Shown here one piece after another: positions 15,449 to 36,319 of a DNA stretch of 64,000 nucleotides. Within the stretch, counting starts at the first letter, position 1. Every line of letters starts with the position of its first letter. Origin of the DNA: Acidobacteriota bacterium (GTDB lineage Bacteria > Acidobacteriota > Vicinamibacteria > Marinacidobacterales > Marinacidobacteraceae); contig JAJDUD010000008.1 in the NCBI GenBank assembly GCA_022826825.1, positions 11,643 through 75,642 of the forward strand, in the 5' to 3' direction. Made by a program: the position numbers and the translations under genes. A model generated the notes under the pieces. That model ran no database searches and was not told where the DNA came from. It was given only the letters and a program-made list of their open reading frames with translations.

Positions 15449-15450
15449 GG

Positions 15451-18919: not shown

Positions 18920-19333
18920 TTGTTTCCCACGATGAAGAAGCTACCATCGTGGGTGTTACCTACTCTGGTTGTAGGAGTGCTCCTTGTTCTGTCCTCCCTC
19001 TTGCTGGTGCGCCTATGGAGTTCGGTGGTCCTTCGGGCTCCATTTTTCGGTCGTTTGGAACCCGCCACGCTCTCGGCCCTTTCCCTCCAAGTCGTCTTAC
19101 TGTCCGCGTTCATTACGCTGTCGAGCTTCATGGTTGCCATGATCGCGTTTCTTGGCTACCGCCAGATCAAGGAGGCTGCGGTGCAGAAAGCCGTCACCGC
19201 AGCAGTGGATAAGTGCCTGGAGCGAACCGACACTGCCGTAAGTGAACGTCTGAATGAGGTTCTTGGATCCAGGGTAGAAACCGGGCCCTCTCCAGAACCA
19301 GAACTAACCGAAGAGGTCTCCGAGGAGGTCTAG
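18920..19333 (+). CDS. small two-TM membrane protein with an acidic coiled-coil tail; true start may be MKKLPSW at 18932
   Basis: Two hydrophobic helices, then a KEAAVQKAV...EEVSEEV tail. The stop lies 2 nt before the ImmA-like gene start. Confidence 0.4.
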   Translation: MFPTMKKLPSWVLPTLVVGVLLVLSSLLLVRLWSSVVLRAPFFGRLEPATLSALSLQVVLLSAFITLSSFMVAMIAFLGYRQIKEAAVQKAVTAAVDKCLERTDTAVSERLNEVLGSRVETGPSPEPELTEEVSEEV

Positions 19334-19335
19334 GG

Positions 19336-19818
19336 ATGGACAAGGAAGAATTGCTGGAAGTCATCCGGTCCCACCAGAAGGAGGCTCCGGTACCCGTCTT
19401 TAACATTGCGCGAGCGATGGGACTGACGGTACTTCGTGCCCGTTGGCCCGACGAGTGGCAGGACAAGATTTCTGGGCAAATACAACGAATCCCTGAGACA
19501 GATCAATACCGGATTCTTCTGAACGCGGCGCATCCACTAACCCGGCAACGGTTTACCTTGGCCCACGAGATCGCCCACTTCGTTCATCACAAGCATCTGA
19601 TCGGAGATGGCATCACTCACGACGCCCTGTACCGAAGTCCACTGTCCACACCGCTGGAGCGAGAAGCAAACCGGCTCGCCGGGAACATTCTGATGCCTTG
19701 GAGCTTGCTTTGGCCCAAGATGTTTAGAGCAGAAACGGACGTGCGGGAGTTAGCGGCGGAGTTCAAGGTTTCTCCAGTAGCAATGGCCATCCAGACCGGG
19801 ATTCCCTACGAGCCGTGA
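19336..19818 (+). CDS. ImmA/IrrE-family (M78) zinc metallopeptidase
   Basis: HEIAHFVHH HEXXH motif in the ImmA/IrrE context, ...EREANRLAGNILMP..., about 160 aa. Confidence 0.65.
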   Translation: MDKEELLEVIRSHQKEAPVPVFNIARAMGLTVLRARWPDEWQDKISGQIQRIPETDQYRILLNAAHPLTRQRFTLAHEIAHFVHHKHLIGDGITHDALYRSPLSTPLEREANRLAGNILMPWSLLWPKMFRAETDVRELAAEFKVSPVAMAIQTGIPYEP

Positions 19819-20340
19819 CCGCCTGAAGCTAGCCGCGAACTGCCGATTTCGGCACAAAAGCAAATGCGAGACCAGAAGATGTCGGCCTAGAAGGCAGCCT
19901 GCCGGGTTGATGCGATAGGTAGCGAGATCCTCGAACGGAGTCCGCAATGATCCTCTGAAGTCTTGCCCCGACGTCATGCGTGAACTGGCCTGCGGCTACT
20001 TGCTTCGCGCTTTCCACGGTTTGCGGGCTGCCCCTAGTGCCGCATCTAGGACACTTGGCGGATCCGTCGCTGCAGCCGTCAGCAATAACCTGACACCTAG
20101 AGCAAATCAACACTAGTGCTATGCCATCAGCCATTGCGCTCCGCCACCAGAGTCGTCATCACCTACCACCATGGAGAGGATCCCAAGAGAACCCTTCTGA
20201 TTGCGCGTCTCTAGCACGCTGAACGGGAGAAGTCAAACGCGCGACTGTCTAGTCCAGGTGCAGGGCCTCCACAGCGAGGCCTGTATAACGCCAGCGGTAA
20301 ACACCGCACTACGCTTCTTCCGGAAGGCATCAGGATTCTG

Positions 20341-22479
20341 CTATTTCGCTCGGCCGAGAGCGGGCCACAGCGTGACGACGAATCGCTCTTCACGGACCGG
20401 AATGCGCACACGGCCCCGCATTCCGTCGTAAAGCGCGTGTTCCGCGCCGGTGCTGCTCAACAAGACCTCCGGCAGGTCCGCATACACGAGGGCCAGCGCC
20501 CCATCTTCGGTCCCCGTGGGCAGGAGTTGGCCCATAAGCGCTCGCGCCTCTTCCGCGCTGATTACCTCCGGGCTGACCTCGCGGGCCTCGAGATGGAAGC
20601 GGCTTCCCGGGAACTGTTCCAGTTCGGCCACCACCGGGATCCCGGACGCGAGCAGGGGACGGAAGTTGCCCGGCACGGCGGCCACGATCTCGAAACCCGC
20701 ACGGGCGGCCCGCACCGTAGCCACCGTCTGGCCGGGATTCACGAGCGTCCCCGGCCTTACCCGTACGTCCGTCAGCACCCCACCCACCGGCACGATCAAC
20801 TGCCGTTCTTCAAGATCCGTCCTTGCCTGTTCGCTCGCGCCGCGCAGGGCCGCGAGCCCATTCCCCACCGTGGGATCCTCCGGGTTCCGCAACAGCCGCA
20901 CCAATGCATCCTCGTACTCGTGCTCTAGGCGCCGCACCTGTGCGAGTTCCGCGTGGTCGTAGAGCGTGCCGATGACGTCCCCCGGAACGACCTCCGTCTG
21001 GGGAGCGATGTGGATGGCCGCCACCGTGCCCGCCTCATTCGCCACCACAGGCACCCGTCCTTGGCTGTGGACGACCGCCATCCCCTCCGCGTACTCGGTG
21101 GCCGTTCCGAAGATCAGGAACGCCGCAAACGCGAGCAGCAGTGCCGCCATGCCGCCCACGATCCAAGATCCCCACCGCTCGGAAACGTTCAGGATGGCGC
21201 TCGGGCTCTCGGAGCGCCGCTGTTCCGCGATCGCTTCGGCGCGGAACACGGATGAGTCCACTCCGACCTCCCCTTGAAGCCGGTGGTATTCCCGAAGGAC
21301 AGCGAGCGGCGGAGCGAAGTCGCTGGCGAGCCGGCGCGCCGTATCCAACAGTTCCGGTCGGAGATGGTCGTGGGCGTCGGCCGCGTGGCACGCGAGCACC
21401 CCAAACACCGTCCCCGAATGGTCCCGGATGGGAACTGCCATCAGTCCGTGTCCGGCCCCTGGCACGAGATCCAACTCCGGATCGAAGAACACCGCGTCCT
21501 CCACGCGTTCTTCGAGCACCGCCACCCCAGACCGCGCGACGTAGGCGATCATGCCGAGCGCCGCGCTATCCGCGAACTCCTCCTGCTGCACGGCGTGGGG
21601 TCCCAGAAGAACCTCCGCCCAATCGTCGTAGGCGTACACCGTCGCCGTGATGTCCGGCATTCGCCGCTCCGCCTGAGCCGCCAAGTCCCGCAACGCGCTC
21701 TGCGCCGCACGTCTCTGTCCACGACTCGTGGCGTCGTACCACGCGAATGCCGGGAACCCGTCCTCGGTGTCCGGTCTCGGGTGAACGAGTTCGCGAAAGA
21801 CCCGCCGGAAGACAGCATTTTCGAGCGCCGCCACCGCCAGCGGGCCGAGGCGGTCCGGGTCCGGCCACCCACTGCATGCGAAGAAAACCTCGCCGGAACC
21901 GACGATGTCGCTCCAGCGGTCGGACATCACGCCCCCGCTTGCGACGAGAATCGGCCGAAGTCCGGGCAGTCGTCGGACGGTGGACCGCACCGACGCGACA
22001 TCGGGTGCCCGGTCTGGCGCACAGCCCAGCAGCAGGGCTCCCACGCTCTGCGGGTTCTGTACTTCCCGCGCGTGGACGATCTCGATCCCCTGTAGGGCCG
22101 GCGTCGCGCGACAGGGCTCGATCGCCCGTTCGTCATCCACGGCGAGGACCACCGGGACCCGGTTCGCAGCCGCGAGGGGAGAACTCGTCCAATCCTCCAC
22201 CAGCGTGAGAACCAACATCTGCACCGCGTTCTCACCACTGCCGTGCGCTGCACCCAGCCGCAGGTCCGCAACTACGGACCAAGCGCTGCCGTTGCCGGAA
22301 CCGAGACGGGCCGTGATCTCCATTCCTTCCATCGCCCCGTCGCGCACCATCACCGCCTCCGCATCCCGGACACACACCCACACCACGCCGGGACCCAGAC
22401 AACATACCCACGCGGGTAATGAAGCACCACCTGCTACCCGAAGCTGCGCAGGCCCTGAGACCCGGCGCCAGCCCTTCAC
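20341..22479 (-). CDS. fusion protein: N-terminal cytoplasmic region with a pseudo-receiver-like segment and a GAF domain, then a TM helix and a CvaA/LcnD/HlyD-type bacteriocin membrane-fusion domain
   Basis: The C-terminal 320 aa begin SVFRAEAIAEQRR...WIVGGMAALLLAFAAFLIFG, the classic N-terminus of CvaA/LcnD-type membrane fusion proteins, followed by a long periplasmic coiled-coil/beta region. The preceding ~390 aa include a GAF-like block (MIAYVARSGVAVLEERV...GLMAVPIRDHSGTVFGVLACH). 4-bp overlap with the upstream ABC gene. Confidence 0.6.
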   Translation of the reverse strand: MKGWRRVSGPAQLRVAGGASLPAWVCCLGPGVVWVCVRDAEAVMVRDGAMEGMEITARLGSGNGSAWSVVADLRLGAAHGSGENAVQMLVLTLVEDWTSSPLAAANRVPVVLAVDDERAIEPCRATPALQGIEIVHAREVQNPQSVGALLLGCAPDRAPDVASVRSTVRRLPGLRPILVASGGVMSDRWSDIVGSGEVFFACSGWPDPDRLGPLAVAALENAVFRRVFRELVHPRPDTEDGFPAFAWYDATSRGQRRAAQSALRDLAAQAERRMPDITATVYAYDDWAEVLLGPHAVQQEEFADSAALGMIAYVARSGVAVLEERVEDAVFFDPELDLVPGAGHGLMAVPIRDHSGTVFGVLACHAADAHDHLRPELLDTARRLASDFAPPLAVLREYHRLQGEVGVDSSVFRAEAIAEQRRSESPSAILNVSERWGSWIVGGMAALLLAFAAFLIFGTATEYAEGMAVVHSQGRVPVVANEAGTVAAIHIAPQTEVVPGDVIGTLYDHAELAQVRRLEHEYEDALVRLLRNPEDPTVGNGLAALRGASEQARTDLEERQLIVPVGGVLTDVRVRPGTLVNPGQTVATVRAARAGFEIVAAVPGNFRPLLASGIPVVAELEQFPGSRFHLEAREVSPEVISAEEARALMGQLLPTGTEDGALALVYADLPEVLLSSTGAEHALYDGMRGRVRIPVREERFVVTLWPALGRAK

Positions 22480-24710
22480 GAATCGTCTCCTGTAGTTCCG
22501 CCCTGCTCAGGCGCCCGTACGAGCGACGCGTATTCACCGTCCAGACTCAGCAGGTCTCCGTGTCTGCCCTCCTCAACGAGATGTCCCTCCTTCAGGACGA
22601 AGATACGGTCCGCGTTGCGGATTGTGTTCAGCCGCTGGGCGATCACGATCCTCGTGCAAGCCAGCCGCGCCAGCCGCGCCTGGATCTTCGCCTCCAGCTT
22701 CGTGTCCAGATTGCTCGTCGCTTCGTCCAGAATCAACACCGGAGGCCCGGTGGCCACCGCCCGCGCCAGCGCCAGACGCTGCATCTGTCCTCCCGAAAGG
22801 AGGAACCCGCCATCGTAGAGCATCGTGTCGTAACCCAGAGGCAGTTTCGCGATGTCATCGTGTATGGAGGCAAGTCGCGCGGCCTCAATCACCTCCGCGA
22901 GCGACATGTCCGGGTTGCCGAGCGCGATGTTCTCGCGAACAGTATCCGCCGCATACCAGTCAGTCTGTGTCACCGTGCCGATCCTGCGACGCACCTCCCG
23001 AAGGTCCAGGGTGGCGAGATCGGTTCCCGAGTACAACACGTGCCCGTTCGTGGGTTCGTAGAGTCCGAGCAACAGTTTCGCCACCGTGGACTTCCCCGCC
23101 CCCGACGGCCCGACGAACGCAACAAATTCCCCCGGGTGGATCGTGAAGGAAACGTCCTGCAAGATGTCCGGGCCCGAATCGCTGTAGCGAAACGTAACGT
23201 GCTGCATCGAGACCGTCCGTGGGTCCACATCCGTCCCAGACCCACGCACCCGACGCTCCGGTTCTGTCTCGATCACGTCCTCAATCCGGTCCACGTAGCT
23301 ACCGAGCAGGTAGATGGACGAAATCGTTCCCACTAGTTTCGACAGCGGTCCCAGGAACCCCATCGCGAAGGCGTTCATCGCCAACATGACCCCAAGGGTC
23401 ATGTGGCCGTCCAGGACGCGCATTGCCCCAACGATGAGAATCAGCATGCCGCCCACGCCCGAGAGCGCACCAGTGATGGCCCCCACGGTCGCGTTGAGAC
23501 GGTTCTGCTCGATCCCGATGTTCAACTCCTTCACGAACAGGTCCGTCCATTTCCGGGCCACCTCGCGCTCCGCGCCAATGGATTTGAGCGCCTCCATTCC
23601 CGAGAGCATCCGCACTTGGTAGCTCCGTGCCTCGGCCTGCCGTTGTATCGACTCCGAAACGAGTTCGCGCAGACGAATTCGCGTCACCGCGAACACCGTG
23701 ACCCGCAGCACGCCGAGCAGCACCACGAGCCCGGCGACCACCACGTCCGTCAGCAGCATCAGGACCAGGTACGACAGCACGAACAGCCCGTCGAGAACCG
23801 CGGAGAATGCCGTTGAGGTCAGCGCACTGCGGATCTGCACATGGCTGTTCATCCGCAGCATCAGGTCACCCGACGAGCGGTTCTGGAGATATGAGAACGG
23901 CAGGTCCATCAGCCGTTCAACGAACGATACGGTCAGCCGGGCGTCAATTCGCGACATCACCTCCACCGCAAGCCGCGAACGTACGAAGGAGAACAGCGTC
24001 GAGAACCCGGCGATCCCGATCAGCGCAATGGCCACCGTCAGCAGCAGTCCCTGGTCTTCCCGAGGTACGATTCGGTCCACTAGTAACGCCGTGAACAGCG
24101 GAATTGCCGTTCCGAGCACCTGGATCGCTGCCGACATCGCGAGAAGCTGCGGCAGGTGTCCGGAGCGCAGGATGACTCGCGCGTAATCACGCAGGACACC
24201 GCGTCCACCGGCCTTTTGCGTCCGGAACGTGTCCGTCGGCCACAACTCCACCGCCACCCCGGTGAAGTTGCGGCTGACCTCCTCCCAGGTCACGATCCGG
24301 CGGCCCGCCGCCGGATCCATTACCCGGATCCCCCGTTTCACGACCCGGTCCAGCACCACGAAGTGGCTAAACCGCCAGTGCAGGATCGCGCCGCGCTGCA
24401 GGCGGCGCAGATCCTCGATCGCATCCACCCGCAGGCCCCGTCCAGCGAGCCCGTGCTGCTCGGCGAGATGCAGCAGATCCGCGGCGTTTGTCCCATCGCG
24501 GCCCGCGGTCAGGTGGTCGCGGAGCGTATGTACGGGAATGTGTTTGCCGTGGAACGCCAGCACGCTCGCCAGGCCGGCGAGACCGCACTCCGTCGCGCCG
24601 GTCTGCTGGACCACCGGCACGGACCGTGGGCGACGGAGCGACCCGATCCCCGTGACCCGCGGTAGCGAGCCCAGGAACGACGGACGCGAGGGCTCAGCCA
24701 TCGGTGTCAC
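22476..24710 (-). CDS. lanT: peptidase-C39-domain ABC transporter (double-glycine leader-cleaving peptide exporter, LanT/CvaB-like)
   Basis: N-terminal C39 domain with catalytic Cys (QTGATECGLAGLASVLAFHG), a six-TM ABC exporter domain, Walker A GPSGAGKST, signature LSGGQMQR and Walker B ILDEATS. Confidence 0.85.
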   Translation of the reverse strand: MTPMAEPSRPSFLGSLPRVTGIGSLRRPRSVPVVQQTGATECGLAGLASVLAFHGKHIPVHTLRDHLTAGRDGTNAADLLHLAEQHGLAGRGLRVDAIEDLRRLQRGAILHWRFSHFVVLDRVVKRGIRVMDPAAGRRIVTWEEVSRNFTGVAVELWPTDTFRTQKAGGRGVLRDYARVILRSGHLPQLLAMSAAIQVLGTAIPLFTALLVDRIVPREDQGLLLTVAIALIGIAGFSTLFSFVRSRLAVEVMSRIDARLTVSFVERLMDLPFSYLQNRSSGDLMLRMNSHVQIRSALTSTAFSAVLDGLFVLSYLVLMLLTDVVVAGLVVLLGVLRVTVFAVTRIRLRELVSESIQRQAEARSYQVRMLSGMEALKSIGAEREVARKWTDLFVKELNIGIEQNRLNATVGAITGALSGVGGMLILIVGAMRVLDGHMTLGVMLAMNAFAMGFLGPLSKLVGTISSIYLLGSYVDRIEDVIETEPERRVRGSGTDVDPRTVSMQHVTFRYSDSGPDILQDVSFTIHPGEFVAFVGPSGAGKSTVAKLLLGLYEPTNGHVLYSGTDLATLDLREVRRRIGTVTQTDWYAADTVRENIALGNPDMSLAEVIEAARLASIHDDIAKLPLGYDTMLYDGGFLLSGGQMQRLALARAVATGPPVLILDEATSNLDTKLEAKIQARLARLACTRIVIAQRLNTIRNADRIFVLKEGHLVEEGRHGDLLSLDGEYASLVRAPEQGGTTGDDS

Positions 24711-24740: not shown

Positions 24741-25688
24741 TCACTCTTCGAGAGATCCGGAACAGTCGAGAGCTAGCTCACCTTCGGCCAGTTGCGGAAC
24801 GGCCAGCACGCGCACCGGAGTTCCGGCCGGGAGTTCGTCCGAGCACAGGAGCGCCTCAAAGGTGTGCAGGAGCGTGCGAGGATCCAGTTCGGGAGAGGCG
24901 TGTATCACGAACCCGAGCACCGGCTCATGGTCCTCGAAGGTCACGGTGATCGGCGCGCCGGCAGAGAGTCCGATGGTCGCCTCGGGCGGCGCCGCGAAGC
25001 GAACGTGCCATTCGCCCGCTTCGATCGCCACCACGGGCGCCCCCCGCGTGTCGTACATCCCAGGCGAGCCGTACACCTGGTCCACCACGCCGCCTAGCGG
25101 TGCGCGCAGCGTCGCCTTGGCCGCTTCGGCGCGCGCCTGTTCCGCAGCCGTTCGCGCAGCCCCAAGTCGCGCCTCGGCGGACTCCAGACGCGCCCGGGAC
25201 ACCTCCACTTCGGCCTCCACTTCCTCGAGTTGTTCCGTAGAGAACAGCTCGGAGCGTCCCTTGCGCCGCGTGTAACGGCTGGCGGCCTGCTCCATCTCCA
25301 CCTGTGCAACCCGCAGCGACGCCTCCACTTCGGCGACTGCTGCCTGCGCCACTGCAAGAGTCCGGTCCACCGATTCAGAGTCGAACCGCGCTACTGGTTG
25401 GCCCTCCTTTACCTCGTCCCCCGGCTGTACGAACCGCTCCAGTAACCGGGCGTCAAACGGCGCCGGCACAACAATCCGCCGCTGCCGTACCACGACCCCG
25501 ACATGACCGTAGTTCGCGGGAAGCAGGCCCGGGACTGGCCTACCCACACTCACTCGTCGCTGCGACCCGGATGGCACCGGACCCGGACGCCGCCGTTCCG
25601 GTTCGCTGCCGTCGCCACAACCGACCCAGGCAGCGAAGGCGACCAATCCCGTCGCCAGAAACGCGCCATGTGCTGCTCTGTAGCTCAC
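24741..25688 (-). CDS. HlyD/RND-type periplasmic adaptor lipoprotein
   Basis: GTG start gives a signal with lipobox AAWVGCG. Coiled-coil hairpin, then ATLRAPLGGVVD, a typical adaptor beta-barrel motif. The start overlaps the lanB stop by 4 bp. Confidence 0.6.
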   Translation of the reverse strand: MSYRAAHGAFLATGLVAFAAWVGCGDGSEPERRRPGPVPSGSQRRVSVGRPVPGLLPANYGHVGVVVRQRRIVVPAPFDARLLERFVQPGDEVKEGQPVARFDSESVDRTLAVAQAAVAEVEASLRVAQVEMEQAASRYTRRKGRSELFSTEQLEEVEAEVEVSRARLESAEARLGAARTAAEQARAEAAKATLRAPLGGVVDQVYGSPGMYDTRGAPVVAIEAGEWHVRFAAPPEATIGLSAGAPITVTFEDHEPVLGFVIHASPELDPRTLLHTFEALLCSDELPAGTPVRVLAVPQLAEGELALDCSGSLEE

Positions 25689-28600
25689 CGTTTCGCGCGC
25701 GCCACCAACGAACGATAGGTCCGGCTCAGGAAATCGTAAAGCACCAACTCGTGCGCTCGCGCCGACATGGGAAACAGCCGGTTCGCGTGCATGTGGGTCA
25801 GGGTTTGCAGCAGTTCTTCGAGTGGGCATTCGAGGTCACCAGACTCCGCCAAGTCCCGGAACTGTCGGACTACCTCCTTGGTGTCTTCGGACCGCTGCTG
25901 CAGGACGGCATCGAATCCGGCGAATCGGGAGTCATCGTCCGGGTATCCGGTAACCGCCGCTTGGATATCCCGGCGCTCCGCCCGCAGCCGTCTCGCTAGG
26001 CGCCGCCGTACACTGGGGCCCACTCCGAACTCCTGTCCGAACGACTCCCGCGCCCCGGCAACAACCTGGTTTCTTTCTCCGTAGTCCAGTCCGAAGTCTG
26101 CAAGCAACCGGTCAAAACCCATCGCCACTGCCTTCCACCGGAGGACTTCATCCTCCACCCCGTCGAGCACTCCGACGACCTGGAGCGCCGCCACACTGTC
26201 CGCCCGAAACCACGCTTCTGCCAGTTCGATCCCCCGCCCCCCGCCATAGCGTTCGACCTCGCGCACGTAGGTGTCGAGGCTCACGCGATGGACGGCACCG
26301 GTGGCCAAGAACGGCTGGAGGAGCGCCGACATCCGTTCTTCCAGCGCCCGACGAGCATCCGGCCCGCCTCGAAACCGGACGCGCAAATGGTGTTCCGGGT
26401 CTCCGTACCGGATGAAAAACCACGGCTCACCCGTCGCAGTGGCTCCGTGGAGCGCTGCCAGCGGCGCGACGACCTCGCGGAGCAGCCGATCCGCCGTGCC
26501 AGCGGCAGCGTAGAGCTTGTAGTAGAGCCACTCGTCTCCCGGGATGAAGGCCCGGGAAGCGATTGGTGCCGTCACGTTCCGCTGCTTTACGCCGTCTTCC
26601 CTGACCGAGGGCGCGGCCCGCTGCCTGCGCACGAGCGGAAGGATGAACTCGTTCCGGTAAGTCCCCTCGGGGCCGCTAACGCAGCCTTCCAGATCCTCAG
26701 CGAGCGTCTCCTCTAGAACCAGGGTGGGTCGGCGCGCCCCATGATCCGCCAGCACCGCCACGCACATCGGGTTGTCCAGATCCAGCAGCAGACGGTTCTC
26801 CCCATCGACGAGACGAACGAAACGCGGAAGCTTCAGCTCCCGAACCAGGGCCAACAGTGCGTCCTCACGGGCGGCGGGCTTCTTCGCCTTCGCAATGGCT
26901 TTGTACTCCGGACGATTGCGTCCCACCATCCAGCGGGCAAGCGCGTAAATGGCACGACCCCGGGTCACTCGCGGCAGGAACGGAAGTCCGTTCAGCACCC
27001 CCCAGTTCCAGCTGAACCCCGGCGCCGTCCCGTCGTTCTGGAGCGCGCATAGAAACCGATACATCCCGGAACTACGTCGATAGTTGTGGGCTGAGGTAAG
27101 GCGTGGGCGCACGATCCTGCCGTCCTGACGCGAGCGCAGCCGAAAACTGCTACCCTCCAGACTCAGCAGCAGATCGTCCACGGTCAGCCGCTTCGGACCG
27201 GTGAGCCGCGAGTTACCGCTACAACTCAACTCGATGTCGCGGACATGAGGTCGTCGCACGACATTGCCGACTCTACCCTCCGGTGTGTGCACGATTTCGG
27301 CATAGACCACCCCGGGTTCCAGCGCCTCCTCATCTCGAAGGTGGCCGCGCACCCGCTCGAGCAACACGGGGTCGAGATCGCAGAACCTTCCCAGCAACCG
27401 GCCACCCGACGGGCCGAAGCCGCCGTGATAGAGGATCCGATATGCGCCGCTCTGCACGGCCTCCTCAGAGGCAGCCACTAGATCAAAGTGGAGTGCCACG
27501 GCCGCTGGCAGAGGGCTCTGAACCGAGGTCGCGAGGCGTGTGAGCAGGTCATCGTCCAGTTCGAGACTCGCTGGGGCTTCACCCCGGAGGTCCAGGAGGC
27601 GCTCCATCAGCGCGTCCGGCACGCCCTGCTGAGGGCTTTTTCCGCGGTTGCCCTCTGCCCCGATGTTGAGGCCGGCAAGGAGCGGCGATCCTGACTGACG
27701 TGGTCGCAGATCCGGACCAGGCACACCGAGTCCCCGTTCCGGATCGAAAACCTCTGCTAGCGGAACCTCGCGTGTCTCGTACCGCTCCCGGAAGCGGCTC
27801 TTGAGGTCACGCAACGGATCCGGTAACCGCGTCATCAGGCGGTGTAACGTGTCGGCACCGCGAAGCACCTCGTCGACGACCTCCTCGGCGAGTTGCAACT
27901 CTTCGGTTTCCTTGAACATGTCCACCTGGAGGAGCCGCTCGGTTTTCTTCTGACCGAGAGGCCCGGTCCACACCGCGTTCACCGCCGCGTACGCCTCGGG
28001 TGGTGCCGCCACTCCATGCTCGTCGAGCTGGTCGAGCGCTTCGCGTAGCTGCCGGACCGGAGTGGCTGACTCGGACAGCGCCTCGCTCGCAGCGAGAGCC
28101 TGAAGGATCTGGTCCAGCGGATCGCTACCTACGACCGCAGGCACCAGCTCCGGCACGAGCACCTGCGACTCGATGAGGTCGTCAAGGTACTCGTCGATGT
28201 CGTCCGAGTTCACATCCGCATCAGTGATGGCGAGCGTCAACGCGGCATGTAATCCAGCCAGCGGCATCGCTTTCGCGGACCGCCGCTCCAAGGCGGCCGA
28301 AAGCGCTTCGTCATTCTCGAGAAACGCCATCTCGTGCCGGTTTTCGGGACCGCGCTGTCGCGCTTCCACATACTGGTACCCGCCCGCAATGGCCGCGATC
28401 GTGTCGTTGGGGCGGTAACGGAGATTCTTCCGGACTCCTTGTTGCCTCAGGAGGCTACCGACCAACTTGGCCACCTGCGCTTGGTCAAGTGCTGAGCGAC
28501 GCCGGTAACGGTCGCGCCCAGCAAGTCTCAGGCGCGTCAGTTCGCCTACGTTCCCCACGGATACACCGGCGAACAGGCCGAATGGCGTGCATCGGTCGCA

Positions 28601-28930
28601 CATCCGCGCGAAGTACTGGACGAGCGCTCGTTCCATCCGCGCCCGCCGCCGCGTAGGTGCTTGGTCGCCCAACCCGGACAGGCGCTCCGCGAGCACTGGA
28701 CTGGCGACCCGCAGCGCATCGGCCGCGTGCGGCAACGCCAGAGCCTCCACGAGAGTTCGCCGCAGCCGGTTCCTCGTGCCTGCTCCGTCACCCGCCGCAG
28801 GGGTTGCAGTTTGGCCACTGGCTCCCCAAACAGCAAAAGTGGCGGTGGGCAGTAAGGGCGTCCGTAGCACGAAAAACCCGGATGGCCGATAGCTGTCGGC
28901 GAAACCCGATGCCCCCGTCTCAGCTGTCAC
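25685..28930 (-). CDS. lanB: class I lanthipeptide dehydratase LanB (glutamylation plus elimination domains)
   Basis: 1081 aa. N-terminal SGFFVLRTPLLP is the canonical LanB opening. The C-terminal WFFIRYGDPEHHLRVRFRG matches the SpaB_C elimination domain. Confidence 0.85.
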   Translation of the reverse strand: MTAETGASGFADSYRPSGFFVLRTPLLPTATFAVWGASGQTATPAAGDGAGTRNRLRRTLVEALALPHAADALRVASPVLAERLSGLGDQAPTRRRARMERALVQYFARMCDRCTPFGLFAGVSVGNVGELTRLRLAGRDRYRRRSALDQAQVAKLVGSLLRQQGVRKNLRYRPNDTIAAIAGGYQYVEARQRGPENRHEMAFLENDEALSAALERRSAKAMPLAGLHAALTLAITDADVNSDDIDEYLDDLIESQVLVPELVPAVVGSDPLDQILQALAASEALSESATPVRQLREALDQLDEHGVAAPPEAYAAVNAVWTGPLGQKKTERLLQVDMFKETEELQLAEEVVDEVLRGADTLHRLMTRLPDPLRDLKSRFRERYETREVPLAEVFDPERGLGVPGPDLRPRQSGSPLLAGLNIGAEGNRGKSPQQGVPDALMERLLDLRGEAPASLELDDDLLTRLATSVQSPLPAAVALHFDLVAASEEAVQSGAYRILYHGGFGPSGGRLLGRFCDLDPVLLERVRGHLRDEEALEPGVVYAEIVHTPEGRVGNVVRRPHVRDIELSCSGNSRLTGPKRLTVDDLLLSLEGSSFRLRSRQDGRIVRPRLTSAHNYRRSSGMYRFLCALQNDGTAPGFSWNWGVLNGLPFLPRVTRGRAIYALARWMVGRNRPEYKAIAKAKKPAAREDALLALVRELKLPRFVRLVDGENRLLLDLDNPMCVAVLADHGARRPTLVLEETLAEDLEGCVSGPEGTYRNEFILPLVRRQRAAPSVREDGVKQRNVTAPIASRAFIPGDEWLYYKLYAAAGTADRLLREVVAPLAALHGATATGEPWFFIRYGDPEHHLRVRFRGGPDARRALEERMSALLQPFLATGAVHRVSLDTYVREVERYGGGRGIELAEAWFRADSVAALQVVGVLDGVEDEVLRWKAVAMGFDRLLADFGLDYGERNQVVAGARESFGQEFGVGPSVRRRLARRLRAERRDIQAAVTGYPDDDSRFAGFDAVLQQRSEDTKEVVRQFRDLAESGDLECPLEELLQTLTHMHANRLFPMSARAHELVLYDFLSRTYRSLVARAKR

Positions 28931-28963: not shown

Positions 28964-30214
28964 TCAGGATAAGAGCAACAGGCGGTCCCACTTCGGCTCG
29001 ATGTCCGTCGTCCCGGTCAGTAGTGCTAGCCCAACGCCCGCCGAGCCAGTGAGAAACGACCCATCATCTACCCAGCCTTGGCGATTCCCGCCTACATCAC
29101 CCCACATGCGGTAACCACCCACTCCCTGGTTTGGTCGCCACCAGTTCAGGGTCGCATCAACCCAACCCCTTGCCGCGTTTGCGAACTCCGGTTCATTGTC
29201 AGTGCGTGCAAGTCGATAGAAGATCTGGGCGTTTCCCGCCGCCCCATGGCAGAGTCCGGCGTCTCGAATCCAGGCCTCGCCGGGTCGGACGCGAGCGCAG
29301 GCAAGAGCCAAGGTCCGCGCCCACTCCACGCCCTCCTGATCCCCAATTGCTTTCGCCGCCTCGAATGCCACCGCTGACGCACCAAGTGGGCCGTAGCACC
29401 ATGCCATTCGGCGACTGACCTCGGGTTCAACGCCCGGCGCAATCCATGATGGCAACGACGCTTCGGTTGGGTCTGACTTGATTGCCCTGAGCCATCGCAA
29501 ACTATCCCGAAGCAAGGGCTCGGCTCGATCCGGCTCGACCCCGAAGGAACATAGCTTCCCCAGAAGCCCACACACCCCTGGCACGCCGTGTGCTACACCC
29601 AAGTTGTAGTAGCCAGCGGGTGCCAGTTTGCGCTGCCAAGCGGGCAGAAAGTCCGCCACCGTGAACCATGTCGTCCCTTCCTTAGTCTCGACCGCCATGC
29701 GCTCAAGCGCCTCAAGAACCAAGCCAAGGCCGCGGACTGCGGAGTCGCGAGGTAGTCGTTCTACGAAATAGACGCCGACACCAACCACGCCGCTGATCAG
29801 GTCGTAGACCCGCTGGTCCGACTGCCGTGCCAAGGCTTCTGCCGCTAACCGGTCCACATGGGTTCCCACGGCATCATCCTCAGCGTCCAAATGAGTCGTA
29901 AGCCAGCCTGGACCCGCCCAGCCACCGTACAGACCCAACTGGGTGGACCTTTGGATTCGATCAAGGTCCGCATCAATCAGCGTTGAGCATGCGTTGGAGT
30001 CATCTTGAAACACCTCCGCCATGTCGGCGTAGGCATGGAAGAGAGCGGCAAGCCCACCGGGGCGACGACGGAATCCGAAGGGTACATTGGATTCTGGTTC
30101 GACCGGTCGCCGCGCCATATTGACAAGCGCTTCCCCTATACCTTTCACAATCAACCTTGCGTTTGCTTTCGATCCAGTGGGCGAGAACGTCTCGCCGGTA
30201 GGCCGTTGGGTCAT
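28964..30214 (-). CDS. lanC: lanthionine cyclase LanC
   Basis: 416 aa carrying the three LanC zinc-ligand motifs GVAHGVPG, WCYGPLG and GLCHGAAGN. Confidence 0.85.
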   Translation of the reverse strand: MTQRPTGETFSPTGSKANARLIVKGIGEALVNMARRPVEPESNVPFGFRRRPGGLAALFHAYADMAEVFQDDSNACSTLIDADLDRIQRSTQLGLYGGWAGPGWLTTHLDAEDDAVGTHVDRLAAEALARQSDQRVYDLISGVVGVGVYFVERLPRDSAVRGLGLVLEALERMAVETKEGTTWFTVADFLPAWQRKLAPAGYYNLGVAHGVPGVCGLLGKLCSFGVEPDRAEPLLRDSLRWLRAIKSDPTEASLPSWIAPGVEPEVSRRMAWCYGPLGASAVAFEAAKAIGDQEGVEWARTLALACARVRPGEAWIRDAGLCHGAAGNAQIFYRLARTDNEPEFANAARGWVDATLNWWRPNQGVGGYRMWGDVGGNRQGWVDDGSFLTGSAGVGLALLTGTTDIEPKWDRLLLLS

Positions 30215-30689
30215 GTTCTTTGACGGCTGTATTGTTCCCGTTAACCTGAAGGACCGGTTTGACTGGCCGCGCTCTCCGGCCGATCAGGCTCAGTCACACG
30301 GCACATCGAATACAAGGTTCAGCTACGCACACCAAGAGAGTCACGAGCGCAGGGTCGGCGACCGCTGCCGGGCCAGCTACGAGCGTAGAACAAACGTAAT
30401 CCCAGCGGTTTATCGGTGTCCGGAGCAAGAGTAGCGATTCAGCGAAGAACACGCACGGTCACTCCGGTTACCGGCGTACGTGTCACCTTAAGGGCGCGCA
30501 CAAGTTCATTCGCGCCTACTACCCGTAGGTAAGTGTGAGCGCACGTGGTGCTTTGCCCGTATCGCTTGTCTCCTCGTAGCCTGCCCGTGGCCTGTTGCTC
30601 TCGGATTCACCTCGTTGACCAGAACTGGATAGTCAAGCGAGCGCCGACAAGACATCAACGCGCTAAACAGCTCTGCCAGGAACCCCCGG

Positions 30690-31028
30690 TCAGCAACCTT
30701 GGTTGTTTTCCGAGTCGCAAAGACCACAGCCAGTGCCACACGAGTAACCGCATGTTGCATCGCATGTGGCATTGCACGACGCTTGACCACAGTTCGTGTC
30801 GCAGGTGGCGGTAGGGCAATCACAAGTACCCTGGCACGCCGAGACGTTGTCACAAGTATCCCCCACGACGGTCTGGGGCTCGACCCTACAGTCACCGATG
30901 CCATAGGTACATCGATCAGTATTTCGTGGTTGAGTTGGGAGGGGGTCATCGCCACCAGCGACACCGGCTAGCCGATCTTGGCTGAGCGATACGAGATTAC
31001 GTTTCTTCAGACGTAGTTTCTTCTTCAT
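30690..31028 (-). CDS. lanA: lanthipeptide precursor LanA: double-glycine leader plus an 86-aa Cys/Thr/Ser-rich core
   Basis: Internal ATG gives MKKKLRLKKRNLVSLSQDRLAGVAGG followed by DDPLPTQPRNTDRCTYGIGDCRV...CGTGCGLCDSENNQGC. The leader fits LSxx(E)LxxVxGG. The core has 15 Cys and 16 Ser/Thr, with recurring TCD/ATC units. Local GC is lower than the genome background. Confidence 0.7.
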   Translation of the reverse strand: MKKKLRLKKRNLVSLSQDRLAGVAGGDDPLPTQPRNTDRCTYGIGDCRVEPQTVVGDTCDNVSACQGTCDCPTATCDTNCGQASCNATCDATCGYSCGTGCGLCDSENNQGC

Positions 31029-31068
31029 GGTGCTGCACCTCAGGCAGCGTGGATGGTCGATTGGAGTG

Positions 31069-31113
31069 TCCCGGAAGGTGGGATCCGAGATGGACCACAC
31101 CTTCCGGGAAGGT
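31069..31113 (-). promoter_or_regulatory. inverted repeat (11-bp arms, 19-nt spacer) plus an overlapping direct copy, in the 100-bp gap upstream of lanA
   Basis: CCCGGAAGGTG...CACCTTCCGGGAAGGTG sits between the TonB-receptor stop (31132) and the lanA start (31028), with no T-run after it on the transcribed strand. Candidate operator or 5'-UTR structure. Confidence 0.35.
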
Positions 31114-31131
31114 GAACTAACAGCCCCGCGA

Positions 31132-34100
31132 TCAGAACGTGAACTTGGTCATGAACTGGAGCGTGCGGGGGAACCCGCTGCTGCACTGGATCTGACCGAA
31201 GTTGCTGTTCCCAACGACGGTGCGGGGGCCGCACCAGTTGGGCGAGTTGAAGAGGTTCAGCATCTCGAAGCGCAGGTTCAGGTTCACATCGCTGAAGATC
31301 GTCGTCGTCTTGTCGAGAGCGACATCCCAAGTGTGGAGCACTGGCGTGCGAACGGTGTCCGTGGTGTGCGGACCGGAGCCAAGCACGAAACCATCCGTCT
31401 GGGCGACATTGCCCGGGCTCAGGTAGTTCAGGTGGCTGCCAGACGGGTTGCCGCCGCCGGACACGCCGCCGCCGCTCGGGCGCTGGTGATCGAAGCCGTA
31501 CGCAGCGAGCGGATTAGAACTCTGCTTCAGAGTCAGCGGGAACCCGCTCCGCAGGATGGTCTGCGTGGAGAGCGACCAGCCGCTGAAGATGGGGTTGTCA
31601 CCTGGTATCCGGTAGTTGAGAGCGATGTTGAACTGGTGCGGAACGTGAATCCGGGATGGACCGTAATCGGCGTCCAACACCGAACACTTCCCGGTAGCAC
31701 AATCATCGGGAGTGTTGAAGATGGTGCTTTCCTCATCCGCGAGTCGGGTATTGCTCTCGTAAATGTTGTCGTTGTGGATCGCCATCGTGTAGTTGATCCG
31801 GGCGCCCCAACTGTCGCGGAACCGCTTTTCGAACTCGATCCGGGCCGAGTTGTACAGCGACTTGCCGGCGCTGACGTGGCGGGCCAGTACGTTCCGGAAG
31901 TGGGGGAACGGCCGGAGCAACTGCCCCAGCGGAAGCGTCTCGGCGCCCGCGAACGAACCGAACCGGGAGTCGCCGTAGAACGGGTTGGGATACTGATCGT
32001 TCAAACGGTCGCCAAGCGCCACGTACTGATCCGCGAGCTGGTTGATGTTGATCACCGAGTTGTTCGTGCCCCCGATCGGGAGGTCTGCGCCGGCACTGCC
32101 TACATAACCGACCTTGAACGCAAGGTCGCGGCCGATGTCGCGCTGGATGTCGAGCGACCACTTGTGGATGTAGGGGGAGGCCCGGTGTTGTTCGTTGAAA
32201 TAGACGTTGCCGCCGATGTTCTGGAACCGGCCTTTCGCGTTGCCGACCGGGTTGTCGATGCCGTTCGGGAACGGGTTCGCAACGGTGGCCTCCGGCGGGG
32301 TCCTTCCGTCGAGGCTGGTAGCGATTGAAGTCACCGCGGTATAGCCGAACGTCCCGACATCGGACGCGCCCACGCCGCTTGGAATCGCGTAGGGCGCCCA
32401 GAAGGTCGCATACCCGCCCCGAATCACTGTCTCCGGGTTCAACGTATAGGCAAAGCCGATCCGGGGACCGATCTTGATTCCAGGGGGGTCCCACTGGTGG
32501 GTTGGGGCGCCGTCGATTCCGGCATACATAAGGCCGCCGCGGAGCGGGAAGCCGGGGAGCGAGCCTTCGATGGCCGGATCGAGCCCAACCTGGATCGGGA
32601 ATGGGTTCGTGCGGTCCCAACCGACGGCGAAACCGTTGTCATCCTCCATCAGGCCGCTCTCGTGCTCAAGGCGAAGCCCCAGGTTCAACACCAGGTTTGC
32701 GCTGGGGCGCCAGTCGTCCTGGACGAAGACGCCGTAGTAGTTGATGAAGACGTCGGCGGGTTCCGCGACGGTCGCCTGTCCGCCGGACGGAATGCCCAGC
32801 AACATGTCGGCGAGCGCATTGCCGGAGGCCGCGTCCGGGGAATCCGGGTTGGGGCCGCGGGTGAAGCTTCGGTCGAAGCTCAACTGGAGCCCATTGTTGA
32901 AGCGGACCGAGTGGAGTCCCATGCGCCGGAACTGAACCCCGTACTTGACGGTGTGGTTCCCGAGGAACTGCGAGAAGGTGCCGTTGACCTCCCGCGAAGT
33001 CCATTGCACATCGGTGTTGGACCACGAACCGTGCGTCGACCCGCCGTCGCCATACTCCTCGATACTGACGCTCGGGAACTGGCCGTCATAGCCTTCCTGG
33101 CCATAGATGGAATTGATGAAGCCGCCCTGGAATCCCAGACCGCTGAACGCGCTCTGGTCGAACACCGGGTTCGAGTTCGAGTCGTTGAAGAAGGTCTGGC
33201 CGTAGCGGAGAGTCAGTACCGACGTGTCGCCGGTGATGAAGGTGTTGTTGAAGGCAACGGCGTGAACATCGCGCCCCAGCGAGGCGGCGCCGATGCCGTA
33301 GGCGGGGTGGGTCTCCGCGTTCAGAAGATCCTTGTAGTGGCCGAACGCCGGCTCCTCCGAGGTGTAGTAAAGGTAGGTCAGGGACGACTGCCAGGCCTCC
33401 GAGAAGGTATGGCTCAGGTTTCCGGTGAGTTGCCGGGCCTGCGTGCGCTGAATCCCGGAGGCTGCGATATCGCCGCCCGGACCCAGTTCGGTGAGGACCC
33501 TCGCCAACGAGGAACCCGCCGGATCGATCATGTGGGCCGGAATGACGTTGCCCGGGAAAGGACGCCGATTGCCGTTCGCGTCGAGATCGAACGGGTTGTA
33601 GATCGTGACTCCGCTCGCGGAGAAGTCGCCAGCAGCTTCAGCAGGAGTCGGCAGCGTGATCGTTACGTTCGAGGCCTGGTCGTCGTTGTAACCCTCGCCA
33701 GAAACCCAGAAGAACGTGCGGTCGCGGAAGATCGGGCCTCCGAATGACCCGCCGAGCAGGATGTAGGGGCGTTCGCTGATGTCCGAATCGGACAGCTTGC
33801 CAGCAGCCACATCCTGGGCTGTGTGGTAGTAGTACTCCCGCAGGAACTGACCGACCTTGCTGGGCCGGAATTGGTGAAGGGCGCTGCCCGCCCAGGCGTT
33901 GGTCCCGGTGCGGTGAATCACGTTGAAGACGCCGCCGCCGGTGCGGCCCATCTCGGCGTCGTAGGTGTTGATCTGGACCTTCATCTCCTGCACCGCCTCG
34001 AACACCGGGATGATGACCGTGCGGTTCCGGAGGTCGGTCGTGGAGACGCCGTCCACGGTGTAGTTGTTGCCGCGGAGCGGCCCACCACCGAGCGAGAGGA

Positions 34101-34644
34101 GGGAGGAGTTCGTCTGGTCGGACTGCTTCACCCAGAACGGGTCGCCGGTGTGGACCACGTTCGGCGTGCCCACCGACATGATGAACACGTTGCGGCCCGG
34201 GGTCGGCAGGACCTCGAGCTCCGCTCGGCTCACCGCCGAGGACACCGAGGCGGTCGCGGTCTCGATCAGCGGCGTCTCGCCGATGACCGTCACCGTTTCC
34301 TCGATGCCACCGATGGCAAGCGAGGCGTCCACCACCAGGAACGAGGCAACACCCACGAGAAGGCCCTCGCTCCGGAACGGGGCGAAGCCGCTCAGTTCAG
34401 CCTGGAGCGTGTAGGTGCCGGGCTGGACGTTGGCAAAGCTGTACTCGCCGACCGCATTCGAAACCGCGGTCCGCGAGACGCCGGTGTCCTCGTTTTCGAT
34501 GGTCACGGTGACGCCGGGAAGGACACCCCCGTCGGGGTCCTGAATCACGCCCCGGACGCCGCCCTGGAACGTCTGGGCGAAGGCGCCCGCAGTGAGTCCC
34601 AGGACGCCGAGCACCGCGGCGGTCCTAAACAAAAGCGATCTCAT
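31132..34644 (-). CDS. TonB-dependent outer-membrane receptor with an N-terminal carboxypeptidase-regulatory-like domain
   Basis: Internal ATG (MRSLLFRTAAVLGVLGLTAGAFAQ) gives a signal peptide. CarbopepD_reg-like Ig domain (GGVLPGVTVTIENEDTGVSRTAVSNAVGEYSF), a plug and a ~1000-aa barrel ending in ...TLQFMTKFTF, with a terminal aromatic residue. Confidence 0.75.
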   Translation of the reverse strand: MRSLLFRTAAVLGVLGLTAGAFAQTFQGGVRGVIQDPDGGVLPGVTVTIENEDTGVSRTAVSNAVGEYSFANVQPGTYTLQAELSGFAPFRSEGLLVGVASFLVVDASLAIGGIEETVTVIGETPLIETATASVSSAVSRAELEVLPTPGRNVFIMSVGTPNVVHTGDPFWVKQSDQTNSSLLSLGGGPLRGNNYTVDGVSTTDLRNRTVIIPVFEAVQEMKVQINTYDAEMGRTGGGVFNVIHRTGTNAWAGSALHQFRPSKVGQFLREYYYHTAQDVAAGKLSDSDISERPYILLGGSFGGPIFRDRTFFWVSGEGYNDDQASNVTITLPTPAEAAGDFSASGVTIYNPFDLDANGNRRPFPGNVIPAHMIDPAGSSLARVLTELGPGGDIAASGIQRTQARQLTGNLSHTFSEAWQSSLTYLYYTSEEPAFGHYKDLLNAETHPAYGIGAASLGRDVHAVAFNNTFITGDTSVLTLRYGQTFFNDSNSNPVFDQSAFSGLGFQGGFINSIYGQEGYDGQFPSVSIEEYGDGGSTHGSWSNTDVQWTSREVNGTFSQFLGNHTVKYGVQFRRMGLHSVRFNNGLQLSFDRSFTRGPNPDSPDAASGNALADMLLGIPSGGQATVAEPADVFINYYGVFVQDDWRPSANLVLNLGLRLEHESGLMEDDNGFAVGWDRTNPFPIQVGLDPAIEGSLPGFPLRGGLMYAGIDGAPTHQWDPPGIKIGPRIGFAYTLNPETVIRGGYATFWAPYAIPSGVGASDVGTFGYTAVTSIATSLDGRTPPEATVANPFPNGIDNPVGNAKGRFQNIGGNVYFNEQHRASPYIHKWSLDIQRDIGRDLAFKVGYVGSAGADLPIGGTNNSVININQLADQYVALGDRLNDQYPNPFYGDSRFGSFAGAETLPLGQLLRPFPHFRNVLARHVSAGKSLYNSARIEFEKRFRDSWGARINYTMAIHNDNIYESNTRLADEESTIFNTPDDCATGKCSVLDADYGPSRIHVPHQFNIALNYRIPGDNPIFSGWSLSTQTILRSGFPLTLKQSSNPLAAYGFDHQRPSGGGVSGGGNPSGSHLNYLSPGNVAQTDGFVLGSGPHTTDTVRTPVLHTWDVALDKTTTIFSDVNLNLRFEMLNLFNSPNWCGPRTVVGNSNFGQIQCSSGFPRTLQFMTKFTF

Positions 34645-35017: not shown

Positions 35018-36178
35018 TCAGGCGCCGGCAAGCCTCGCCATCCGGCCGAAGAAATCGGCGTGGCCGGCCAGGATGCGCTCCTCCGCCTCCCGGTTCGGCT
35101 CGAGCGACCACTCCCCCCGCTCCCGGGTTCCTCCCAGCAGGATGCCGTCCGCGCGCGGCATCATGTAGAGCCCCTGGTAGAGCGCGATGTAGCGGATCTC
35201 GGGCTGCGGCAGCAGGACGGTCAACTGGCCCTTGAGCGGAACGAGTTCCTCGTCGCCGACCAGGGCGCGCGCGCCGATGCCGGTGCAGTTCACCACGCGG
35301 CGTTCCGCCAACCCGGCGATCTCGTCGAGGGAGCCGAAGTCGCGGATCCGGATCCGGCCGCCGGCGAGCTGGAAGTCCCGCATGACCGCGCCGAGATACA
35401 CCGGCGGCTCGATCATCATGGTCGTGTACTCGCGGGCGTGGCGCACCGGGAAGGGATGGGTCCCGGGCTCGAGATCGCGCGTCTCCGGAAAGAGGTCGGC
35501 GAGCCGGTCGGGCTGGCCCGGGCCTCCGAAGGCGACGTCGCTGAGCGGGTAGTTCGGGAGCCAGTACACGCCGTAGCGGACGCCCACCATCTCCTGGAAG
35601 ATCCGGTGGGAGATCCGGGCCGCCCGTTCCAGCCGGTCCTGGAACGCGTCGGTGTGCACGCGGGCGTCGGACACCGAGTAGGGGCCCCACTGGGCGCAGG
35701 CCACGTTCGAGGTGGTGTTCGGCGGGAGGTCCTTCGTATAGATGGTGACGTCCACGCCGCGCCGCTGGAGCAGGCGCGCGGTGGCGAGGCCGACGGCGCC
35801 GCAGCCGATCACCGCCGCCCGCGCCGGAGGCGGGCCGTCGCCGATGAGTTCCTCGACGGCCAGCCAGGCGCTGCCCCAGGAGAGGGTCACCCCGGCCCCG
35901 CCGTGGCCGTAGTTGTGAACGAGGATCCGGCCACCTCCCAGATCCTGGCTCTCGACCCGGAACCCGGACGGACGGAAGGGGCGGAGCCCGACCACCGTGC
36001 GGATGACCCGGTCCCGCGAGACGTTGACCGGCGGAAGCCGGAAGGAGGGCTTCGGAAGCGGATCGGGCGCCGTGCGGGCGGCCGGAACCGGCCGGCCGGC
36101 GCAGGCCGCCGCGGCGCCGGCGGCGAGGCCGGAAGCGAGCTTCACGCCGACGCCGAGAACGCGGCGGCGGGACGGCAC
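35018..36178 (-). CDS. Tat-exported FAD-dependent oxidoreductase, D-amino-acid oxidase-like
   Basis: A GTG start gives the Tat-like SRRRVLGVGVKLASGLAAG. Contains GHGGAGVTLSWGSA and the DAO-family dinucleotide-binding motif VIGCGAVG. The remainder of the track ORF is GC-frame junk. Confidence 0.55.
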   Translation of the reverse strand: MPSRRRVLGVGVKLASGLAAGAAAACAGRPVPAARTAPDPLPKPSFRLPPVNVSRDRVIRTVVGLRPFRPSGFRVESQDLGGGRILVHNYGHGGAGVTLSWGSAWLAVEELIGDGPPPARAAVIGCGAVGLATARLLQRRGVDVTIYTKDLPPNTTSNVACAQWGPYSVSDARVHTDAFQDRLERAARISHRIFQEMVGVRYGVYWLPNYPLSDVAFGGPGQPDRLADLFPETRDLEPGTHPFPVRHAREYTTMMIEPPVYLGAVMRDFQLAGGRIRIRDFGSLDEIAGLAERRVVNCTGIGARALVGDEELVPLKGQLTVLLPQPEIRYIALYQGLYMMPRADGILLGGTRERGEWSLEPNREAEERILAGHADFFGRMARLAGA

Positions 36179-36319
36179 GGGAGGCGGCCTGGCGGTCCCC
36201 GGAACGGTGAGCGGTAGCGGCGGCAACGGGTTTCCTATACTAGGCGAGGTACGGCTCGCCGGGCTCCCCGCCGGATGACCGGATCGGATGACGCGCCGGC
36301 CCGCCGGGAGGCGAACGAC

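Follow-up and report, generated by a model that had tools for sequence, protein, structure and literature searches.

The locus

The 64-kb stretch of Acidobacteriota DNA analysed here, called the window below and the frame for all coordinates unless a related locus is named, carries a lanthipeptide gene cluster whose precursor gene, lanA, lies immediately behind a gene for a large TonB-dependent receptor, with the receptor and the lan genes all on the minus strand. A first-pass annotation of this DNA had placed the receptor directly upstream of lanA on the same strand, and that holds, the protein having 1170 amino acids (1171 codons with the stop) and the gap to lanA 103 bp. Comparison with related genomes indicates that the receptor was not inherited as a member of the cluster, whose boundary is the receptor stop codon.

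The receptor start at 34644 (MRSLLF…) matches the starts of its orthologues as well as that given by an independent gene call for this contig; a longer open reading frame of 1203 amino acids reaching 34743 is not supported. The protein begins with a signal-peptide-like sequence, MRSLLFRTAAVLGVLGLTAGAFA/QT (AFA/QT), which is followed by an N-terminal CarboxypepD_reg extension (PF13620; residues 30–109, E 6e-18), a TonB-box-like motif, a plug-like region and a large beta-barrel matching OMP_b-brl_4 (PF25183; residues 245–1163, E 9.5e-138). The motif, ETVTVIGETPLIE at about residues 116–128, resembles the TonB box consensus D/E-T-x-x-V-T-A/G, and across 30 receptor homologues T119 and V120 are invariant and conservation reaches 90% or more at E116, E123, P125 and E128. 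The match to the Plug domain (PF07715) reaches no more than a sub-threshold score (E 0.11; 13.4 bits, where the cutoff is 23.9), although it lies where a plug would be expected and takes in positions 5–100 of the 107 in the profile, and Pfam returns no match to the STN domain (PF07660). A sequence search against solved structures found no match and a fold search was used instead, starting from an AlphaFold2 model of mean pLDDT 66 in which the barrel lies mostly at 60–90 and is acceptable, and residues 112–250 fall below 50 and are unreliable. The top Foldseek matches of this model in the PDB are all TonB-dependent transporters (YddB 3e-20, FusA 2e-18, PfeA and Cir), which together with PF25183 points to a large outer-membrane beta-barrel of the 22-strand type. 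Full-length homologues are many, at 60–89% identity, and the domain architecture assigns the protein to the Oar subclass of TonB-dependent transporters as an additional member. It is probably a nutrient importer, and we infer a substrate related to the amino-acid and peptide catabolism and transport genes that are conserved beside it.

An additional Oar-type receptor of 983 amino acids is encoded at 58394-61345 on the minus strand (CarboxypepD_reg 1.6e-18, OMP_b-brl_4 1.3e-87) and shares just 23–28% identity with the receptor types considered below. This second gene shows how densely the genome is stocked with receptors of this kind.

The lanA gene encodes a double-glycine leader and a core of 86 residues that contains 15 Cys and many Ser and Thr. 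The leader, MKKKLRLKKRNLVSLSQDRLAGVAGG, scores below threshold against the NCBIfam class I lanthipeptide leader models NF038153 and NF038158 (E 0.003–0.004; 17.7 bits against a cutoff of 22), similar leaders precede Cys/Thr-rich cores in 8 related islands, and a sister lineage carries a lanA of 111 amino acids at ~85–90% nucleotide identity. These leader matches, the homologous leaders, the conservation in the sister lineage and the LanC and LanB genes that follow argue that lanA is a real gene. With a separate LanB and LanC, and a precursor of leader and Ser/Thr/Cys-rich core encoded beside the enzymes, the predicted product class is that of an additional class I lanthipeptide cluster in diderm bacteria, with an unusually long Cys-rich core and a two-adaptor exporter. 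The export set is complete in kind without the receptor, the C39-peptidase ABC exporter (PCAT) and the adaptors forming a colicin V (ColV)-type arrangement. No TolC-like gene was found in any island examined, and no sigma/anti-sigma genes of the FecI/FecR type occur among the open reading frames of the window island.

An insertion beside a resident receptor

The surroundings of the receptor were compared with those of its orthologues at 89% identity (L001/L002; L001 at 88.5% over the protein) and at 79% (L003–L005; L003 at 79.5%). Both groups share the upstream genes of the window, namely those for an amidohydrolase, an MFS transporter, a DinB protein, RidA, an amino-acid permease, a 241-amino-acid protein and the DAO oxidoreductase, and both lack the lan genes. 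By blastn the window is collinear with L001 and L003 from 31134 to ~44500, and the alignment resumes at ~16170–17390, within the TPR gene. Since the next gene in the lan-less relatives matches ~16.2–17.4 kb of the window, the interval from ~17.5 to 31.13 kb is a 13.6-kb insertion. Its left junction lies within the gap between receptor and lanA, where homology to the lan-less relatives stops at the receptor stop codon.

Composition follows the same division. The G+C content at third codon positions is 0.845 in the receptor gene, 0.92 in the DAO gene and 0.86 in the TPR gene, against 0.53 in lanA, 0.64 in lanC, 0.73 in lanB, 0.69 in the first adaptor gene, 0.80 in the PCAT gene, 0.78 in the second adaptor gene and 0.53–0.64 in the IrrE/DUF2914 module, so that the codon usage of the receptor is host-like and that of the lan genes is not. 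Presence and absence between conserved flanks in relatives, together with deviating composition, characterize the insertion as a genomic island. The same arrangement, including the hairpin described below and the 111-amino-acid lanA, is found in the sister lineage L091–L094 at ~85–90% nucleotide identity. At the borders of the window island there is no integrase, insertion sequence, tRNA or convincing flanking repeat.

A fusion of an island-borne receptor to the resident one was considered and rejected, as the window receptor aligns over its full length with those of L001 and L003 to the last residue. Its identity to the 970-amino-acid receptor type that accompanies many related islands is ~29%, over the N-terminal 340 residues only, and tblastn finds no remnant of a 970-type receptor in the window.

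The position 3' of the receptor can also hold another gene. In L001 a gene for a 684-amino-acid multihaem-cytochrome/TPR protein (14067-16121, minus strand) follows the 1170-amino-acid receptor, and it is present in L001 and L177 and absent from L003 and the window. The site is therefore variable even apart from the lan island.

Features of the receptor–lan region of the window (coordinates of the 64-kb stretch)
Feature	Position	Strand	Remarks
TPR gene, resident	16169..17506	-	right flank of the insertion; in L003 the orthologue begins 122 bp past the receptor stop
Low-GC right-hand module	17507..20340	.	DUF2914 protein, 137-aa open reading frame, IrrE/M78 peptidase; absent from other lan islands
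DUF2914 protein	17786–18826	+	
137-aa membrane-like open reading frame	18920–19333	+	
IrrE/M78 metallopeptidase	19336–19818	+	
Second adaptor-like protein	20341..22479	-	<=712 aa; HlyD domain at C-terminus only; last gene common to homologous islands
C39-peptidase ABC exporter (PCAT)	22476..24710	-	744 aa; Peptidase_C39, ABC_membrane, ABC_tran; TIGR03796 2.4e-162
HlyD-type membrane-fusion adaptor 1	24741..25829	-	longest open reading frame overlaps lanB end; independent gene call starts 25504
LanB dehydratase	25685..28930	-	1081 aa; Lant_dehydr_N (PF04738) 3.3e-144, Lant_dehydr_C (PF14028) 3.8e-61
LanC cyclase	28964..30214	-	416 aa; LANC_like (PF05147) 4.6e-31
lanA–lanC spacer	30215..30689	-	475 bp, non-coding; inside stretch ~90% identical to sister lineage
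lanA precursor	30690..31028	-	112 aa; ATG at 31028; 26-aa double-glycine leader + 86-aa core
Receptor–lanA gap	31029..31131	-	103 bp; hairpin; GAGGTG ribosome-binding site 9 nt before lanA ATG
Oar-type TonB-dependent receptor, resident	31132..34644	-	1170 aa (1171 codons with stop); ATG start; TGA stop 31134–31132
FAD-dependent oxidoreductase (DAO), resident	35018..36217	-	upstream of receptor in every relative examined

Within the island, the long spacer between lanA and lanC is possibly an internal promoter or processing region. About 550 N-terminal residues of the second adaptor have no Pfam match, and the protein ends every intact related island at 53–80% identity. The right-hand module, at a GC content of 0.55–0.56, may be a separate, later insertion. 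Elsewhere in the window, dispersed short repeats occur at ~9171-9530, 37054-37284, 51735-52276, 54581-54647 and 56799-57411; they are ~50–320 bp long, 79–94% identical and found in either orientation, the copy at ~37054–37284, at least, is intergenic, and they are possibly a REP-like (repetitive extragenic palindromic) or MITE-like (miniature inverted-repeat transposable) element.

Related islands and their receptors

Homologues of the window LanB at 53–72% identity form a clade that is well set off from the next group (at most 41%). For this clade, 11 informative islands were obtained from context look-ups and two scans of collections; a metagenome scan added one member (L097), its remaining loci falling in the outgroup, and L178 was left out as uninformative because it begins at a contig edge. 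Three receptor types stand beside these islands: the 1170-amino-acid type in the lineage of the window and L091 and in L177, a 970-amino-acid type in L006, L007, L008 (= L011), L009, L012 and L097, and a 953-amino-acid type in L010 (= L179). The three types are mutually no more than ~30% identical. Two islands depart from the arrangement and both are disrupted by insertion sequences, L014 having an IS21 element upstream of lanA and L013 being an orphan LanB among transposases. L014 keeps the entire lan module and has no receptor nearby.

The islands themselves share their export machinery, the PCAT being 78–93% identical across them. The lanA products of the window, L006-L012 and L014 have a common KKKLxLKKRxL…GG/GA leader and cores of ~40–86 amino acids that are very variable in sequence, in which T-C and S-C dipeptides and acidic residues are abundant and of which several end in CC. 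This pattern suggests that the precursors are a diversifying family of polycyclic peptides.

Like the 1170-amino-acid type, the 970-amino-acid type is also found without any cluster. The type is widespread, its cluster representatives numbering more than 90 at 74–93% identity, and there is indirect indication that many of these copies are lan-less, since they lie on megabase contigs, including that of the L003 genome, which do not figure in the list of longest contigs for the LanB clade. In L095 and L096, orthologues with 80–83% identity occupy lan-less contexts, and in a neighbour-joining tree of the type the lan-linked and lan-less copies are interspersed. The homologue list, the two lan-less contexts and the tree rule out a dedicated, cluster-specific clade of 970-amino-acid receptors. 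At the DNA level, homology between lan-linked and lan-less 970-type loci stops ~55 bp after the stop codon, past the terminator.

The junction between receptor and lanA

The first-pass annotation had seen no terminator between the two genes, which does not stand as worded. The gap contains a hairpin of −31.7 kcal/mol with 18-nt arms (31069–31086 and 31092–31109) and a 5-nt loop, which is kept in the sister lineage at −33.0 kcal/mol and ends ~40 nt before the lanA ATG. Lacking a U-tract, the hairpin differs from a textbook intrinsic terminator. At the equivalent position after the receptor, L001 shows the canonical form, a GC hairpin with TTTTTT behind it, and in L006 and L007 a canonical GC-hairpin and T-run terminator is followed by ~200 bp before lanA. 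Spacers between receptor and lanA measure 85–300 bp in L006, L007, L009 and L012, and TTGAC-type motifs stand upstream of lanA in L008, L009 and L014. A scan for one promoter type found no sigma-70-like promoter in 28500–35500, the gap included; acidobacterial promoters are poorly defined, and a sigma-70 negative is uninformative for the phylum. Neither the gap nor the lanA–lanC spacer has an Rfam match at E <= 1, and the possibility of a riboswitch or another known RNA there was therefore set aside.

Marks of mobility are seen at the junctions of related islands. A direct polymorphism is shown by the pair L177 and L001, which are 99.8% identical in DNA through the receptor gene and a further 51 bp including its terminator (receptors 99.9% identical); beyond this point L177 carries a lan island, with a LanB 58% identical to that of the window, and L001 is without an island at the site. 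Two Transposase_mut (IS256-type) elements, at 4454-5841 and 19726-21113, flank the L177 island as inverted copies with 99.6% identity, and the whole resembles a composite transposon with a lanthipeptide cluster as its cargo. In L008, IS21 or Transposase_mut genes lie between receptor and lanA. Two further islands sit between directly repeated receptor genes, in L009 at 4932-8027 and 18964-22068 (79.7% nucleotide identity) and in L179 at 4022-5971 and 20164-22113 (82.8%), where the downstream copy is fragmented and adjoins a tyrosine integrase. Such direct repeats could mediate both gain of the island, by Campbell-type integration, and its loss by deletion. Integration targeted to tRNA genes was rejected, as there are none in the window or the 11 related loci, and so were att-type direct repeats at the island borders, where the window and L179 show only short repeats at chance level.

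Origin of the adjacency

On balance, though not by much, we favour reading the lan genes as an accessory island that occupies a hot spot of recombination or insertion next to receptor genes, and not as part of a dedicated partnership. The receptor would be a resident Oar-type transporter belonging with the FAD oxidoreductase, amino-acid permease, RidA and amidohydrolase genes, and a horizontally acquired class I lanthipeptide island of ~13.6 kb (lanA, lanC, lanB, adaptor, PCAT, adaptor and low-GC module) would have inserted in the short intergenic region right after its stop codon. By homology, LanB would dehydrate Ser and Thr and LanC would form the thioether rings, after which the PCAT and adaptors would cut the peptide behind GG and export it with no need of the receptor, the outer-membrane step being supplied from outside the island as in colicin V-type systems. 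We further infer that lanA would be transcribed at least partly on its own and that the receptor would have no dedicated role in making, exporting or sensing the peptide. The recurrent adjacency would then reflect where and how islands integrate and are exchanged, candidate mechanisms being permissive sites 3' of receptor genes, homologous recombination in which flanking receptor copies take part, and the action of insertion sequences or an integrase. The lan-less receptor copies, the breaks in homology, the terminators, the L177 polymorphism and the receptor duplicates all argue for islands that move into or between receptor-flanked sites and against a receptor owned by the pathway. The first-pass annotation had offered uptake, self-sensing or simple adjacency; for this gene the last is the best supported, by the resident receptor, its host-like codons and the lan-less relatives.

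A number of observations weigh against a mere hot spot. A co-oriented Oar-type receptor lies directly upstream of lanA in nine of the 11 informative islands, whereas among distant LanB loci (33–41% identity) any Oar-type receptor occurs in the fetched flanks of 6 of 153 and is both upstream and co-oriented in at most two. With the density of Oar-type receptors estimated at ~1–1.6% of genes in these loci, chance adjacency would arise in roughly 0.5–1% of independent events. This contrast, the three receptor types and the low chance estimate argue that the association of receptor and island is not random. Co-transcription is possible in the window, as the hairpin there lacks a U-tract and the gap yielded no promoter; no single integration mechanism accounts for all three receptor types; and Oar, an Oar-type transporter, is required for PopC secretion (PMC6434023). 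The synteny check that the first-pass annotation had proposed accordingly gives a divided answer, the receptor position being conserved beside lanA but filled by three non-orthologous types, two of which also occur without the cluster. Pure coincidence, by which an island happens to adjoin one of an abundant class of genes, could draw on the two such receptors within the 64-kb window, on extra copies in several related loci, and on the shared descent of many of these loci, which leaves few independent events; three non-orthologous types at the equivalent position, the low chance per event and the near absence of the arrangement from distant LanB loci nevertheless make it very improbable.

Alternatively, receptor and island could be functionally coupled, with Oar-type transporters acting as outer-membrane partners, either to carry the peptide out of the periplasm once the PCAT and adaptors have exported it, in the manner of Oar and PopC, or for re-uptake in the service of signalling, immunity or cargo delivery in the manner of MbnT, and with selection keeping them adjacent. 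Beyond the co-oriented adjacency over three non-orthologous types, such coupling would be in keeping with the missing TolC-like gene, with a gap of only ~105–110 bp in the window and L010 whose hairpin without a U-tract would allow read-through, with the shared domain architecture of Oar, and with the TonB-dependent transporters encoded in other ribosomal peptide clusters (PMC9266682, PMC9601215). We nonetheless regard it as unlikely. In genomes without islands the receptors stand among conserved neighbours and show host-like codon usage, and they were not transferred with the island, homology breaking at the receptor terminator; canonical terminators separate receptor and lanA in L006 and L007, and the receptor of L001 and L177 has one too; a PCAT that is 78–93% identical would need to serve partners only ~29% identical; function in trans needs no adjacency; and the intact lan module of L014 does without a nearby receptor. 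Slightly more doubtful still is the broader proposition that, in Acidobacteria of marine and probably animal-associated habit, Oar-type transporters are real outer-membrane partners of a family of very large Cys-rich class I lanthipeptides, either as exit route behind the PCAT and adaptors, which would be a second example of TonB-dependent secretion after Oar and PopC, or for re-uptake or sensing, although a requirement for an outer-membrane partner would, if true, explain islands behind three different receptor paralogues. The islands might instead exploit transcription alone, read-through from a strong, nutrient-regulated receptor promoter giving the cluster conditional expression, with the hairpin as attenuator or mRNA-stabilising end and the receptor protein uninvolved. 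The failure to find a sigma-70-like promoter, the mere ~40 nt from hairpin to lanA, the co-orientation in every case and the conservation of the hairpin in the sister lineage speak for this; yet the scan covered a single promoter type in a phylum whose promoters are poorly defined, L006 and L007 have a canonical terminator and a ~200-bp spacer, promoter-like motifs precede lanA in other 970-type and related loci, and co-orientation over three independent events is not significant (1/8 by chance). We give this possibility little credence.

The pairing in the window is thus explained by insertion of an island, and the lineage-wide pattern of receptors and islands is unexpected. For annotation, the consequence is that the biosynthetic cluster ought to be drawn without the receptor, a resident gene that cluster-calling programs and readers would be tempted to include. 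Marine Acidobacteria appear to exchange lanthipeptide islands with unusually long precursors (cores of ~40–86 residues with many Cys), a conserved PCAT and two adaptors, and the position of these islands is non-random, directly behind and sometimes between duplicated Oar-type receptor genes. Should integration mechanics prove to be the reason, this type of hot spot could serve as a guide to accessory clusters in genomes of this kind; should it be function, the islands would widen TonB-dependent secretion beyond its one known case, that of Oar and PopC, or add lanthipeptides to the peptides that are reimported by dedicated receptors.

Comparison with known systems

The recurrent flanking of lan islands by receptors is a new observation. 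Full-text literature searches found no report of a lanthipeptide cluster paired with a TonB-dependent receptor, and a Wenzhouxiangella paper that mentions both draws no link between them. The first-pass annotation could cite no precedent for the pairing, which stands for lanthipeptides but not for other ribosomal peptides, as methanobactin operons encode the TonB-dependent transporter MbnT (PMC9601215, PMC3621798) and lasso-peptide isopeptidase clusters likewise encode TonB-dependent transporters (PMC9266682). In both, as here, the transporter gene adjoins a ribosomal peptide cluster. The transporters of those systems, however, are constant, dedicated members that import the product, those of the lasso clusters together with FecI/FecR-type regulators, whereas the window receptor predates its cluster, occurs without it, and has neither an STN match nor a sigma/anti-sigma pair in the island. 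A dedicated transporter would be inherited with its cluster and absent where the cluster is absent; the 1170- and 970-amino-acid types stand in lan-less loci, and L177 and L001 differ in the island while sharing the receptor.

By architecture the receptor is likened to Oar of Myxococcus xanthus, whose documented role is secretion of the protease PopC (PMC6434023), with the signal peptide, CarboxypepD_reg extension, TonB-box-like motif, plug-like region and large barrel of a subclass that is abundant in Acidobacteria-like genomes. Nothing at the window receptor shows a part in secretion, and its conserved neighbours are genes of amino-acid catabolism and transport. For the exporter, the nearest parallels are the ColV system and the NHLP-type bacteriocin exporters (TIGR03796), which share the C39 ABC exporter, the HlyD-type adaptors, the double-glycine leader and an outer-membrane component outside the cluster; in ColV-type export by PCAT, membrane-fusion protein and TolC, the partner TolC is encoded elsewhere (PMC10352776). 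Unlike these, the window island has two adaptors, one of ~700 amino acids with ~550 N-terminal residues outside any Pfam family, and its predicted cargo is a class I lanthipeptide of 86 residues and 15 Cys. The biosynthetic genes themselves recall VdsA of Thalassomonas viridans (PMC9680876), another diderm producer in which LanB and LanC accompany precursor peptides, from which the window differs in a core that is much longer and richer in Cys, in its KKKLxLKKRxL…GG leader, and in belonging to a family of islands recurrently flanked by Oar-type receptors.

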